A stretch of DNA of 64,000 bases, taken from contig JBEKDZ010000004.1 in NCBI GenBank assembly GCA_050014095.1, positions 90,834 through 154,833 of the forward strand, written 5' to 3'. The translations under genes and the position numbers were made by a program. Positions within the stretch are counted from its first letter, which is position 1; each line of letters starts with the position of its first letter. The stretch comes from Dehalococcoidales bacterium (lineage in GTDB: Bacteria > Chloroflexota > Dehalococcoidia > Dehalococcoidales > RBG-16-60-22). The notes beneath the pieces are model-generated. The model searched no databases and was not told the DNA's origin. It was given only the letters and a program-made list of their open reading frames with translations. Of this stretch, positions 87 to 30,311 are shown piece by piece.

Positions 87-1253
87 TTATTGATCAGGAA
101 AAAGAGTCCTTTCGACTAAACCGATTTGGTTATACCACGCATATTTTTGTTCAGATTCTATGCGAGCTTTCTCAGCAACTGTTGGAAGAGATTCAATCTC
201 GGTCACCAACGTTGACAACTTGTCATACCATTCGTATGACCTAGCCAGGAAACCATTCTCCTTATCTCGGATAGCCCTGGCATAGGTGAAAATGGGGGAT
301 GCCACAGTAACCGTACCGACAATCCCAGCCTCAAAATACTTGAGCTCAGACTTGCAATTCGTAAACTCATTATCTTGGATCGGCACTAGGTTAACTTCTA
401 CCTCTCCGACTAAGCGCTGCAAGTTCATAAAGTCATGTAGAGGGAGAAATTCAAGCCGCGACTTATGATTTTGGATCGTGCCTCTTAGTTCCAGGTAGCC
501 GACGACTCTTATTACAATGCGGGGGTTAATCTCTATAAGGCGCTCCAACGCGTCCGATATAATCTCAAAATCTTTGTTGTGCGAGGGTGTTCCGCTGAAA
601 TATCCTAAGTGAATTTGTCCGTTCCGCTTAAATTGCCTGGATTTCTTGTATTGGTAGATCCGGTCCGAGATGTCCATCTGTTCTTTGTTGAGGAAATTCG
701 GAATGACTGAAACCGGTTTGTTGGAAAATTCCTGTATGCGAGCTGCAAGATATTCGTTTGTAGTTATAACCTTGTCACAAAGGGTCAACGCCAAACCGAG
801 ACGACTAGTATACGCGAACCAGAAGTCCCAGACGTTCGGATGGTTCAGGTCTTGATTTAGGGTATCCAGTATGAGATGAACATAGGCTGTATCAAAAACA
901 CGATCGTCAATATCGTAAAATACTGGCTTTCCTCTGTTTCGGGCTTTCGTGATCACCCGGTCTAACTTATCGTTGTAACGCGAGCGACAAACTACCAGCA
1001 CATCAGCGACGTCAACCACTTTTTCGAGATCGTTGAGTTCATTGCAAGTGAAGTAGGCAGCCGACACATTATTCCCCTTCTCCCGCAATACCTGAATCAT
1101 GTTGTACACGCGATATCGGAACGTGCTATTATCAGGATTCTCGTAATAATAAGCGACCCGTCGGTTCCCTTTGCCAAGCATTTTGAGCCTCTCTTGGAAC
1201 GAGGAGACCCACGGGTCAGCATACTTCATCGGCGATACATTAATTAGATACAT
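87..1253 (-). CDS. GT-B fold glycosyltransferase (GT1/GT4-like)
   Basis: 388-aa ORF. The C-terminal half has a GT-B nucleotide-sugar binding region (HLGYFSGTPSHNKDF ... SELKYFEAGIVGTVTVASP, an E-x7-E-like motif). Last gene of a minus-strand glycan operon. Confidence 0.6.
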   Translation of the reverse strand: MYLINVSPMKYADPWVSSFQERLKMLGKGNRRVAYYYENPDNSTFRYRVYNMIQVLREKGNNVSAAYFTCNELNDLEKVVDVADVLVVCRSRYNDKLDRVITKARNRGKPVFYDIDDRVFDTAYVHLILDTLNQDLNHPNVWDFWFAYTSRLGLALTLCDKVITTNEYLAARIQEFSNKPVSVIPNFLNKEQMDISDRIYQYKKSRQFKRNGQIHLGYFSGTPSHNKDFEIISDALERLIEINPRIVIRVVGYLELRGTIQNHKSRLEFLPLHDFMNLQRLVGEVEVNLVPIQDNEFTNCKSELKYFEAGIVGTVTVASPIFTYARAIRDKENGFLARSYEWYDKLSTLVTEIESLPTVAEKARIESEQKYAWYNQIGLVERTLFPDQ

Positions 1254-1260
1254 CAGACGG

Positions 1261-2646
1261 CTACCACTTCAATTTATTTAGTATACCATTGAAAGAAATG
1301 GTCCAGTCTCGTAAAATTCGATTTTTGTTGTAATTCCTAATTCTTTTATGATAGTTGGTAGCCAGTTTGACCCCATTTTCGATACCGTGAACAAGGCTAT
1401 CAACATCCAACTGACAGCAGAGTATGTTCCTAGAGTAATTATTAAGACTGTGTTTATTGCTATACCGGGCAGTTACCGCCACCGCCCCACTGGCTGCCAG
1501 GTCCAGGGGGGGATAGCTGGGGTGGGGAGAGTACATCAAACAAAGCCCGAGGTCCATTTTCCGGACTAAAGCAGCGTAATCTGACCAGTTTAGGTTCTGA
1601 CAGAAATGTGGGTTGTAGCCATCCCTAATACACAATGGCGGAATATTGTTGCCGACAAAGTAGATGTTCCATTCATCTGGATTAAGTACTCCTGTTGTGG
1701 CGGCTATCTTGATTACCTCCAGTCCCAGATAGAAGAGGTTCCTTAAGTTATTAGGACGTGCATAATAAAAGAAGTTTTTCTTTCCTTTTGGCTCCCGGTG
1801 ATCGTAGTAAAAGAGCTTTTGAGACCACGATGGTTCAAACCACAGCCCGTGTTCACGAATATTTTCGAAGCCCTGAGAAACAAAATAGTCATAAAGCAAC
1901 TTCGTATTGATAATAAATTGTAATCCCGGGCTACTTAGGATTTGCGTGCTGCGAATATGGTCATCCCCGAAGGGATAAAACGTTCTTTCATCTTCTTGCA
2001 ATAAGTAAATGACTCTTTTCTCACCGAGTACGTCTTTCACACTCTTTGTAGTCCACCATGATGTCGTCAGGAAAACATCCCCATCTCCCACGGGGACTTC
2101 GGCCATTGAATCATTGTAATCAACGTACAAGAATTCAACATTTCTGAAAAATGGAATGCCATTGGCCTGCAAGATAAGCGAAAAATTCCTTTTTTCAGCC
2201 TTTCCAGTTCGCGTAATGATACGCAAATCACATTCCCAACTATCAGCGAGAAGGGCGGATAGTATGATGGCCGTAGCGACACCGCCAAATAGGCTCTCGC
2301 TATTGATACTATCTGTCACCATATTAAGACGCCGTTCTGTGCGTGGAATAGTGAAGACGTGAATCGGACGTAACGTTACAAATCGCTCATGAAGGACGCC
2401 TTCCACATCCGGAGGGCTTTGAGCAGAAGTACTCACCTGTTCGAAGCTATCTGGATTGTAATTCCGCAGTCTGCTGTCGATCTTTCTTTCAAGTGTCAAC
2501 GCATTCATCCTTCTCAAATAACGGAGAAATTTTTTCAGGTTTGCCGCGTTCAGGTTTCGCACAAACAGTTTTGGCTCCTTTACAAACTTAAGCGCTAAAT
2601 TCACAAGCAGCCTTCTTCGTGTTCCCAAGGGCAAGAGTTTGCTCAC
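1261..2646 (-). CDS. WsaF-like (GT4-type) glycosyltransferase, putative rhamnosyltransferase family
   Basis: 461-aa ORF ending 8 nt before the next gene start. RLNMVTDSINSESLFGGVATAIILSALLA and YARPNNLRNLFYLGLEVIK resemble, from memory, WsaF-type enzymes of S-layer glycan loci. Not verified by search. Confidence 0.45.
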   Translation of the reverse strand: MSKLLPLGTRRRLLVNLALKFVKEPKLFVRNLNAANLKKFLRYLRRMNALTLERKIDSRLRNYNPDSFEQVSTSAQSPPDVEGVLHERFVTLRPIHVFTIPRTERRLNMVTDSINSESLFGGVATAIILSALLADSWECDLRIITRTGKAEKRNFSLILQANGIPFFRNVEFLYVDYNDSMAEVPVGDGDVFLTTSWWTTKSVKDVLGEKRVIYLLQEDERTFYPFGDDHIRSTQILSSPGLQFIINTKLLYDYFVSQGFENIREHGLWFEPSWSQKLFYYDHREPKGKKNFFYYARPNNLRNLFYLGLEVIKIAATTGVLNPDEWNIYFVGNNIPPLCIRDGYNPHFCQNLNWSDYAALVRKMDLGLCLMYSPHPSYPPLDLAASGAVAVTARYSNKHSLNNYSRNILCCQLDVDSLVHGIENGVKLATNYHKRIRNYNKNRILRDWTISFNGILNKLKW

Positions 2647-28815: not shown

Positions 28816-28829
28816 GGAAATATAACATA

Positions 28830-30311
28830 ATGCAGCAAAAGATAGTAAATACTGTAAAGCATTCAGCTATTTATAGTGTTACCGCCGTTGTCAGCCCATT
28901 TATCAGTATATTTCTAATACCTGTCTACACCAGAATATTTTCCCCGGCCGCCTACGGTATTATGGCTGGCATAAACATGTTTACTCCTATCGTATCGACT
29001 CTTATAAATGCAGCCCCCCAGAACGCAATCGCCCGCTTTTATCTTGACTCCCAAGATACCAACGACAGGAAGCTTACTGCATCTGTCGGACTTTACCAGA
29101 TAATCTTTGTAGCACTAGTTTTAATTTTACCTTTGACCTTGATCTTTCCTCAAGAGATATCAGAGCTGGTTCTAAAAGATAGCCAATACACCAAGTATTT
29201 TATTATCGCCTTAGCCACGATATTTTTCACTAGTTTCTTTAACTACGGGCAAGATATGATGAGATTTAACTTTCAATCTATTAGATATTCTGTTATCTCC
29301 ATGGTGTATACCCTTACTGCAGTTGGTTTATCCATCCTACTGGTCGTGGTATTGAGAATGGATATAACCGGAGCCCTGACTGCCTCTCTTATTGCCTCGG
29401 CAATGTTTAGTTTTGTTATTATTTTAATGACCAGAAAATACTACTCATGGTCGTTTTCCACAACCAGGCTCAAGGAAATGTTAAAATATGGGCTCCCTCT
29501 TATTCCTGTGGGAATCTTGACTTATGCTCTAACCTACACCGACCGATATTTCCTGATTAATTATCGCGGTCTGGCTGATTTGGGGTTGTATTATGTTGGG
29601 CTCTCTCTAGCTAACGTTCCCGCGATTCTTTTCTCTGGCTTCCAGGTAGCCTGGGCACCTATCCTTTGGTCAACCTACAAGGATGAAGACGCCAAGCAGT
29701 TTTATTCCAAAATACTCGATTACTCCTTTGCCTTGGCTATTCTGGCTATCACGGCAGTCTCGGTATTCTCCCGAGAAATACTAGTAGTCATCACTACTAC
29801 AGAATACCTGGATGCATATAAGGTGGTGCCTTGGCTGGCTTTTAGTCTGTTATTTACGACGGTCTTTTCCCTGTTTGTCCCGGGGGTAGGTATTGCTAAA
29901 AAAACAGTCCACCATATATGGCGTATTGCCGTGGTACTAGTATTAAACATTGCCTTGAATTTTTGGCTCGTTCCTATCTACGGAATGGTAGGGGCGGCTG
30001 TAGCTACCCTGATATCATCCGCTATTTCCTACATCATATATTTGATTATGTCGCAAAGATATTACCCTATGCGCTACAATTTTCTTAGTTATTTCGAGAT
30101 AACCTCTGTTGCCGTAGTAATACTATTTCTATGGTATTACTTATTCCTGGATATAAGCTGGCATAACGTTTTAATCAAGCTAGGGTTGATGCTCCTGTTA
30201 CTAATATCCCTTTTCGTTTTTAAAACGATTGGCAAGACGGAGCTTAGTTTTGTTAAACAGGTGACTGTTACATATTTTAAAAAACTTATGTCATCAAAAG
30301 TATTTCACTAG
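28830..30311 (+). CDS. wzx: Wzx-type (MOP superfamily) oligosaccharide flippase
   Basis: 493 aa with about 12-14 hydrophobic segments. Polysaccharide-biosynthesis-protein-like N-terminus (KHSAIYSVTAVVSPFISIFLIPVYTRIFSP). Last gene of the operon. Confidence 0.65.
   Translation: MQQKIVNTVKHSAIYSVTAVVSPFISIFLIPVYTRIFSPAAYGIMAGINMFTPIVSTLINAAPQNAIARFYLDSQDTNDRKLTASVGLYQIIFVALVLILPLTLIFPQEISELVLKDSQYTKYFIIALATIFFTSFFNYGQDMMRFNFQSIRYSVISMVYTLTAVGLSILLVVVLRMDITGALTASLIASAMFSFVIILMTRKYYSWSFSTTRLKEMLKYGLPLIPVGILTYALTYTDRYFLINYRGLADLGLYYVGLSLANVPAILFSGFQVAWAPILWSTYKDEDAKQFYSKILDYSFALAILAITAVSVFSREILVVITTTEYLDAYKVVPWLAFSLLFTTVFSLFVPGVGIAKKTVHHIWRIAVVLVLNIALNFWLVPIYGMVGAAVATLISSAISYIIYLIMSQRYYPMRYNFLSYFEITSVAVVILFLWYYLFLDISWHNVLIKLGLMLLLLISLFVFKTIGKTELSFVKQVTVTYFKKLMSSKVFH

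Follow-up and report, generated by a model that had tools for sequence, protein, structure and literature searches.

An archaeal-type protein N-glycosylation locus with a conserved six-gene core, predicted in an uncultured Dehalococcoidia bacterium

Introduction

Bacterial N-glycosylation is known experimentally almost only from the PglB systems of Campylobacterota and some Desulfobacterota, of which the Pgl system of Campylobacter jejuni is an example. Cultured members of the Dehalococcoidia, such as Dehalococcoides, have been described as having an archaeal-like S-layer envelope. Here, we describe a glycan locus in a stretch of 64,000 nt from an uncultured Dehalococcoidales bacterium (Chloroflexota; Dehalococcoidia), which corresponds to positions 90,834-154,833 of contig JBEKDZ010000004.1 (GCA_050014095.1) and is referred to as the window; all coordinates are window positions unless another locus is named. 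An earlier note on this DNA, made from the letters alone, had read positions 87-30311 as a complete protein-glycosylation pathway ending in an STT3-type oligosaccharyltransferase (OST). The observation itself is confirmed, as HMM annotation found every gene family that had been named at its position, and the interpretation is partly supported. We consider it probable that the window holds an archaeal-type protein N-glycosylation locus, and the locus is organized as a conserved six-gene core with hypervariable arms.

Results

The OST belongs to the archaeal AglB family

Families were assigned by Pfam and NCBIfam hidden Markov model (HMM) scans of the window ORFs. Relatives of the OST were matched in 369 species-representative genomes, and locus comparisons use the best 80 of these 369, whose AglB loci were searched by tblastn with all window proteins; the gene map of locus L082 was examined additionally. 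Four related loci (L001, L002, L003, and L082), whose OSTs are 48-68% identical to that of the window, serve as the principal references, while L081 is a public contig that is 100% identical to window 1-11253 and reaches 9.9 kb further left. The core genes are as follows.

8295-10889, plus strand: AglB/STT3-type OST of 864 aa with an inserted J-like domain (Pfam STT3, AglB_core, and DnaJ; TIGR04154; match to Archaeoglobus fulgidus AglB, AfAglB)
11029-12566, plus strand: Wzm (ABC-2 permease) and Wzt (251-aa ATPase, no carbohydrate-binding extension) (Pfam; NCBIfam Wzm/RfbD-like and TagH/Wzt-like models, below cutoff)
12591-13724, plus strand: core GT4 glycosyltransferase (PF00534, E 4e-40; 62-78% identical and syntenic in L001-L003)
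13805-14767, plus strand: DPAGT1/AglH-like GPT, the putative initiating polyprenyl-phosphate HexNAc-1-phosphate transferase (PF00953, E 5e-33)
14786-15259, minus strand: PAP2 polyprenyl-diphosphate phosphatase (PF01569, E 4.5e-16; undecaprenyl-diphosphate phosphatase model, E 8e-19, below cutoff)

The OST contains PF02516 at aa 25-310 (E 9e-30) and the AglB core PF22627 at aa 611-708 (E 1e-17), and it passes NCBIfam TIGR04154, 'oligosaccharyl transferase, archaeosortase A system-associated', with 506.8 bits vs. a cutoff of 450. By sequence, the closest solved structure is A. fulgidus AglB-L (3WAJ/5GMY; E 1.5e-49), to which the protein could be aligned across aa 2-455 and 583-737; human STT3A and STT3B are weak matches, and Campylobacter PglB was not detected by phmmer at E<=0.001. 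Twelve hydropathy peaks are present. An AlphaFold2 (AF2) model of the OST was built from 25 sequences and has a pLDDT of 66, with poor regions in EL1, EL5, and around WWD, and it was used for the global fold match only. Foldseek ranked AfAglB first for this model (3e-17), followed by the eukaryotic STT3 proteins and then PglB (~4e-4).

Alignment with AfAglB located the expected motifs at D47 (equivalent to AfAglB D47), D163xD165 (vs. DHH in AfAglB), T352-T-T-E355 (vs. TIAE), and W653WDFG657. These residues are nearly invariant among 190 full-length relatives, as D47 is kept in 188, D163 in 190, E355 in 184, W653 in 188, W654 in 184, D655 in 187, G657 in 189, and D707 in 188. The last of these opens the segment D707xxTxxxM714xxxI718, which aligns with AfAglB DIEMETGKYYAM and may have a DKi-style layout, the DK/DKi/MI motif being the one that contacts the +2 Ser/Thr; position 714 is the exception to the near-invariance. 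On sequence grounds, the protein is a genuine archaeal AglB-type N-OST that is apparently active and whose family is under purifying selection, and the assignment of an STT3-type enzyme as the final transferase was upheld. The archaeosortase/PGF-CTERM co-occurrence of TIGR04154 was not encountered within the window, as no archaeosortase or exosortase family occurs among the Pfam matches of its ORFs and no PGF-CTERM signal is present in it.

The OST heads a conserved six-gene core

The core also includes the GPT, which among PDB structures is closest to human DPAGT1 (E 4e-22 vs. 5e-10 for MraY), and no bacterial WecA or TagO NCBIfam model is listed for it at E<=1e-5. It is therefore an AglH/Alg7-type initiator, of the eukaryotic/archaeal kind and not of the MraY/WecA kind, which narrows the previous description of an 'AglH/WecA type' enzyme to its DPAGT1/AglH side. 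The PAP2 protein is undecaprenyl-diphosphatase-like, and the carrier-recycling role proposed for it would fit this family.

The gene order AglB-Wzm-Wzt-GT4-GPT(-PAP2) is identical in L001, L002, L003, and L082. In all four, Wzm/Wzt directly follow the OST and the GPT is syntenic, while PAP2 is syntenic in L001, L002, and L082; core protein identities in L001-L003 range from 62 to 84% (tblastn). None of these four loci shares anything else from 87-30311 with the window. L001 and L082 instead carry heptose-like SIS, HAD, and GHMP kinase genes together with other glycosyltransferases upstream of the core. Downstream, PAP2 of L082 is directly followed by MacB-ABC-MFP genes and then by a BNR-protein gene, both of which have counterparts to the right of the window locus, and thus the entire segment 15265-30311 is an insertion relative to L082. 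In L002, homologues of window 38678-42677 come after PAP2. It is therefore not established that all 30 kb serve a single pathway, as had been proposed. Across the best 80 of the 369 Dehalococcoidia AglB loci, the most frequent neighbors are epimerases (25), GT2 (18), GT4 (15), NDP-sugar transferases (15), and ABC ATPases (14).

Two additional observations concern the core and its surroundings. The OST and Wzm genes are 140 bp apart, and this gap contains a near-consensus sigma-70-like promoter at 10941-10969 on the plus strand, which agrees at 11/12 positions and is a consensus match only. In L001 (17344-22596 of that locus), the core module is followed by a signal-peptide right-handed beta-helix protein of at least 1751 aa, which runs off the locus and replaces the MacB/BNR genes.

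The OST contains a J-like domain

One feature of the OST had previously gone unmentioned.

9744-9938, plus strand: J-like (DnaJ) domain, OST aa 484-548 (PF00226, 44 bits vs. a cutoff of 27.8; J-domain PDB matches at ~1e-10)

The domain is located in the loop between transmembrane helix (TM) 12 and the last TM (TM12-TM13). It must be cytoplasmic, because the chain crosses the membrane just once (TM at aa 571-589) between this domain and the external domain that bears WWD. OST relatives lacking the insert have a short Lys/Arg-rich loop at the same position. In the AF2 model, the region forms four helices (pLDDT 60-85), and Foldseek also returns J-domain PDB matches. With an HMM derived from the insert, J-like domains were found in 46 of 200 OST relatives, but an intact HPD motif is present in only two of the 46, P0073 and L011, both of which are deeper relatives. 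Elsewhere, the HPD position is occupied by intermediates (HAD, HSD, QPD, and RPD) or, in the clade of the window protein, by Q/S-T/S-S/G, with QTS in the window OST itself. Helices II and III are still well conserved. Given the absence of HPD, classical stimulation of Hsp70 ATPase activity is unlikely for the window OST, and the simplest reading is that an ancestral functional J domain has been turned into a J-like interaction module. We found no description of an OST with such a J-like domain.

A docking role of the insert for Wzm/Wzt was considered and rejected, as no pattern of co-occurrence is apparent among the loci compared: Wzm/Wzt are adjacent in three of six J-bearing loci and not in the other three, and they are also adjacent in two J-less loci. 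Several metagenome-assembled genomes (MAGs) were also found to encode two AglB loci (L004/L030 in JAZDPB01, L006/L080, L022/L053, L026/L037, L031/L046, and L049/L067). In JAZDPB01, one paralogue has a J-like insert with QPD at the HPD position, and the other has no insert.

The core is flanked by variable arms

From the ORF listing and the HMM scans, the genes of 87-30311 are arranged in four transcription blocks.

87-8076, minus strand: block 1, the left arm, with a weak GT4, a WsaF-like glycosyltransferase, a 1268-aa fusion, and Ugd (Pfam, NCBIfam)
2966-6772, minus strand: the 1268-aa fusion of FkbM methyltransferase, B12-binding radical SAM, class I methyltransferase, and GT2 domains (Pfam)
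8295-14767, plus strand: block 2, with STT3/AglB, Wzm, the 251-aa Wzt, GT4, and the PF00953 GPT
14786-19258, minus strand: block 3, with PAP2 and then a WbpE/D/B/A-like set
15265-19258, minus strand: the WbpE/D/B/A-like set, consisting of a DegT aminotransferase, a hexapeptide acetyltransferase, a GFO oxidoreductase, and a UDP-HexNAc dehydrogenase (Pfam, NCBIfam)
19526-30311, plus strand: block 4, the right arm, with a GT4-like protein (GT4 N-domain); a second precursor set of aminotransferase, acetyltransferase, and UDP-GlcNAc 3-dehydrogenase; two SDR dehydratases/epimerases; FemAB-like, GH130-like, and GT1/4-like genes; and Wzx (Pfam, NCBIfam)

Six glycosyltransferase genes or domains were found: 87-1253 (GT4, weak), 1261-2646 (WsaF-like), the GT2 domain within 2966-6772, 12591-13724 (GT4), 19526-20809 (GT4 N-domain only), and 27772-28815 (GT1/4-like). 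The seven counted in the earlier note are reached only if the GPT or the GH130-like gene at 26853-27761 is included. The precursor pathways (Ugd at 6769-8076, the WbpA/B/D/E-like set at 15265-19258, and the second aminotransferase/acetyltransferase/oxidoreductase set at 21014-23809) and the two translocation routes (Wzm/Wzt at 11029-12566 and Wzx at 28830-30311) are all present as described. The WbpE/D/B/A-like set would be expected to yield a 2,3-diacetamido uronic acid sugar, and the oxidoreductase of the second set scores 411 bits against an archaeal UDP-GlcNAc 3-dehydrogenase model with a cutoff of 450.

Few of these genes travel with AglB. The left-arm GT4, the WsaF-like glycosyltransferase (E 1.3e-37 to the WsaF structure 2X0D), and the 1268-aa fusion are absent from all of the best 80 related loci by tblastn, and Ugd has only distant relatives (27-36% identity) in 9/80 loci, none of them in L001-L003. 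The right-arm genes are absent from L001-L003 and L082. Homologues of the WbpE/D/B/A-like set do occur near AglB in L047 and L074. Stand-alone B12-radical-SAM genes lie near AglB in 8/80 related loci, which hints at C-methylated sugars in these glycans.

Position 87 is a left boundary created by the window, as L081 shows at least 9.9 kb of further glycan genes. Directly left of window position 1 (L081 11254-21167) are genes for a GT87-family GT-C membrane glycosyltransferase, an ArnF-like small EamA protein, and an ArnC/PgfS-like GT2, along with an aminotransferase, an acetyltransferase, a sugar C-methyltransferase (PF08484), epimerases, and a GT1. With this extension, the glycan locus exceeds 40 kb. 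The GT87 protein would be a second extracytoplasmic transferase and is most simply read as a decorating enzyme using a polyprenyl-phosphate sugar. It is thus not established that the OST is the sole extracytoplasmic transferase.

An envelope protein encoded downstream is a candidate acceptor

Two neighboring units to the right of the locus concern the possible acceptor.

34204-37401, plus strand: candidate acceptor, a BNR/Asp-box protein of 1065 aa, predicted to be a membrane-anchored envelope protein (sequence features, AF2, Foldseek)
30523-33987, minus strand: MacB permease, ABC ATPase, and membrane-fusion protein (MFP) (Pfam, NCBIfam)

The 1065-aa protein begins with a signal peptide, followed by two beta-propellers that contain Asp-box-like repeats; next come Ig-like domains and a disordered linker rich in S/T/P, and the C-terminus is formed by a TM helix and a basic tail. 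Its AF2 model (pLDDT 80) matched generic double beta-propeller ectodomains (SorCS2, HTCS sensors, and GH74) in Foldseek and matched no characterized S-layer protein. The family is strikingly uniform: its members measure ~1020-1070 aa, share at least 45% identity across more than 120 clusters, and come from Chloroflexota wherever a source is named. Its gene is located directly beside AglB and in the same direction in two distant genomes (L010 and L063), and it is near the core in L082. In L083 and L084, its sole constant neighbors are the divergent MFP-ABC-MacB genes, and no glycan genes are nearby. The protein, which had been put forward as a substrate, is a plausible envelope protein and a reasonable candidate acceptor, but its role as a substrate is not established; it has 13 sequons vs. 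10.4 expected, and its homologues show no sequon enrichment (see below).

The MFP-ABC-MacB genes are divergent from the BNR gene in the window, L082, L083, and L084, which is every homologue locus examined, even those without nearby glycan genes. This suggests a functional pairing of the transporter with the envelope protein, perhaps in export, assembly, or turnover. At the C-terminus (37220-37401 and homologues), a Pro-rich linker, a 'P-x-Y-[IL]-W' motif, a TM helix, and an 'R-T-[GR]-R' tail are conserved, and the window protein reads PVTIW-TM-RTAR rather than PGF. The arrangement resembles a sorting-signal-style anchor that is neither PGF-CTERM nor PEP-CTERM, and no sortase-like gene is present in the window. 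The gene that immediately follows the one for the envelope protein (37496-38644, plus strand) is radical SAM/SPASM maturase-like; it was rejected as a conserved partner of the BNR gene, as it is not conserved there in L083 or L084.

Relatives of the OST are distributed among uncultured Dehalococcoidia

The best 120 protein relatives of the OST and the best 80 of its 369 genome loci all derive from uncultured Chloroflexota/Dehalococcoidia, and the nearest are 64-68% identical. Contamination of the assembly by an archaeal contig was considered and rejected: bacterial EF-P, an EpmA-like gene, and MacB are on the same contig, and the relatives are on Mb-scale Chloroflexota contigs. The earlier note had regarded N-glycosylation as uncharacterized in this lineage. 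We likewise found no open-access literature on AglB/STT3 or N-glycosylation in Chloroflexota or Dehalococcoidia, but NCBI and JGI annotations already name many such Chloroflexota proteins 'oligosaccharyl transferase, archaeosortase A system-associated'.

The remainder of the window includes ordinary bacterial housekeeping context, such as EF-P with an EpmA-like truncated lysyl-tRNA synthetase paralogue (53623-55121, plus strand) and an operon encoding a MoxR AAA ATPase, a DUF58 protein, and a DUF4129 membrane protein (55683-59391, minus strand).

Proposed pathway and alternative readings

In the pathway that we consider probable, the DPAGT1/AglH-like GPT would act on the cytoplasmic side and place HexNAc-1-phosphate on polyprenyl phosphate. 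The chain would then be lengthened by the core GT4 and a strain-specific set of glycosyltransferases, which would draw on UDP-GlcA, 2,3-diacetamido sugars, and further nucleotide sugars supplied by enzymes of the locus, and the 1268-aa fusion may modify or cap it through its methyltransferase and B12-radical-SAM domains. The lipid-linked glycan would be exported by Wzm/Wzt, with a second glycan possibly exported by Wzx, after which the AglB-type OST would move the glycan en bloc onto the Asn of N-X-S/T in secreted or envelope proteins. The diphosphate carrier would be recycled by PAP2.

Several observations weigh against this reading. About 18 of the ~24 genes are not conserved with the OST and are linked to it by adjacency alone. 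There are two export routes, and immediately beyond the window lies the GT-C/ArnF-like/ArnC-like trio; these could belong to the synthesis of a separate glycoconjugate. Position 714 of the OST is Lys in 168/190 relatives and Met in the window protein. Among 118 homologues of the candidate acceptor, there is no sequon enrichment (a mean of 6.7 N-X-S/T vs. 8.8 reversed motifs per protein), and three sequon columns are conserved at 50-65%, with reversed-motif controls performing equally well or better. All of the best 80 of the 369 genomes are uncultured MAGs, in which the system is predicted from sequence. Finally, the negative results for Wzy, WaaL, PglL, and LCP are limited to the window plus 9.9 kb.

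The alternative that survives best, which we regard as possible though rather unlikely, limits N-glycosylation to the six-gene core and assigns the arms (87-8076, 15265-30311, and the genes left of the window) to at least one distinct surface polysaccharide, for instance a capsule, an exopolysaccharide, or a secondary cell-wall polymer; the polymerase, ligase, or anchoring enzyme would then be encoded elsewhere, and the genes would be co-located since glycan genes cluster. The absence of the arms from the closest relatives and the insertion of 15265-30311 relative to L082 agree with this alternative, as do the second flippase Wzx and the independent GT87/ArnF-like/ArnC-like trio. So does the base composition: GC is 0.43-0.45 at 1-12000 and 0.40-0.42 at 26000-30000 vs. 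0.50-0.53 in much of the remaining window, in agreement with a mosaic acquisition of these variable arms. However, conserved cores amid hypervariable arms are also typical of O-antigen loci and archaeal agl loci, and the GPT is the single initiating transferase in the window plus 9.9 kb, where no ORF matches the PHPT initiator family (PF02397) or Wzy_C (PF04932). In addition, a hydropathy scan of all window ORFs of at least 150 aa, followed by Pfam, accounted for every polytopic protein (OST, Wzm, GPT, PAP2, Wzx, MacB, an ABC exporter, and the DUF4129 protein at 55683-57173). There is therefore no Wzy, WaaL, or PglL-type protein in the window, and none was found in the extra 9.9 kb either; an LCP gene was likewise not found. 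The reported absence of Wzy, Wzz, and WaaL from the window is thus borne out, and the hallmarks of a Wzy-dependent or WaaL-ligated pathway are missing from it.

A teichoic-acid-like or secondary-cell-wall-polymer pathway comprising the GPT, Wzm/Wzt, and PAP2, with an LCP protein encoded elsewhere attaching the product to peptidoglycan and AglB functionally unrelated, seems improbable. The host, a Chloroflexota bacterium, may have a wall of a suitable type, and Wzt scores best against TagH-type models, albeit below cutoff, which would be compatible with such a pathway. Nevertheless, the GPT resembles DPAGT1/AglH with no WecA/TagO model listed, the OST-Wzm-Wzt-GT4-GPT order and spacing are conserved in four genomes, and LCP, TagA/B/F-type, and glycerol- or ribitol-phosphate genes are all lacking among the Pfam matches of the window ORFs. 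It is very improbable that the STT3-like protein does not glycosylate proteins, having lost its activity or taken on another role such as that of a scaffold acting through the J-like domain. The degenerate HPD, the Lys-to-Met change in the DK motif, and the poor AF2 model around the catalytic loops are set against intact and near-invariant metal-binding, catalytic, and WWD residues and a score above the curated TIGR04154 threshold; moreover, PglB-type enzymes normally have hydrophobic residues at the DK/MI position.

Discussion

The locus suggests that an archaeal AglB-type OST is used together with an AglH-type initiator throughout an environmentally abundant class of Chloroflexota, represented by 369 species-level genomes. 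If true, this would provide a molecular basis for the archaeal-like S-layer envelope and document the inter-domain transfer of a whole glycosylation pathway, while its compact six-gene module (OST, ABC exporter, GT4, GPT, and phosphatase) could be of use in glyco-engineering. The window protein would also be the first OST to have a J(-like) domain built in, so that a connection of glycosylation with chaperones or secretion could be tested. A more speculative scenario, which we consider doubtful, is that a Dehalococcoidia AglB subclade gained a J domain on the cytoplasmic side, which in deep branches has kept its HPD, and that this domain tethers Hsp70 or another cytosolic partner and hands chaperone-held or translocating envelope proteins over to the OST while they are unfolded. 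Prokaryotes would then have a counterpart of the eukaryotic OST that is associated with the translocon, at work in an archaeal-type N-glycosylated envelope that was horizontally acquired by a bacterial class.

Among described systems, the AglB pathways of euryarchaea (A. fulgidus AglB-L and the Agl systems of Haloferax and Methanococcus) are the most similar. The OST falls within the same TIGR04154 subfamily, has its best sequence and fold match there, and may share the DKi-style layout; an AglH/DPAGT1-like GPT is found in both; and the window includes an archaeal-type UDP-GlcNAc 3-dehydrogenase (a below-cutoff match) and 2,3-diacetamido-sugar genes, whose products we take to be like the sugars of Methanococcus glycans. 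The GT2, flippase, and GT-C trio beside the locus recalls Haloferax AglD/AglR/AglS. Unlike the euryarchaeal systems, the host is bacterial, Wzm/Wzt export is part of the conserved core with no AglR-type flippase there, the OST has a J-like domain, and neither an archaeosortase nor PGF-CTERM is present in the window.

The proposed likeness to the S-layer clusters of Geobacillus extends only to accessory enzymes. The ABC-transporter-dependent S-layer O-glycosylation (slg) cluster of Geobacillus stearothermophilus (WsaA-P) also has Wzm/Wzt and a WsaF homologue, and the methyltransferase-glycosyltransferase fusion of the window is reminiscent of WsaE, although it also holds a B12-radical-SAM module. 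The defining enzymes of slg differ, however, as the window has a PF00953 GPT in place of a WsaP-type PHPT and an N-OST in place of the WsaB/Wzy_C O-oligosaccharyltransferase, and it has no rml genes. The C. jejuni Pgl system is alike as a bacterial, lipid-linked, en bloc N-glycosylation pathway encoded in one locus, which in the present case is predicted. In contrast, PglB is undetectable by sequence and its fold match is far weaker (~4e-4 vs. 3e-17), PglC, PglK, and bacillosamine genes are lacking, and the initiation and export families differ.

For the insert, the relevant comparison is with J-domain proteins, including DnaJ/Hsp40 and the HPD-less Pam16/Tim16. The insert exceeds the Pfam DnaJ threshold and its closest PDB structures are J domains, but unlike these proteins it resides inside a polytopic glycosyltransferase, and HPD is absent here and in most relatives.

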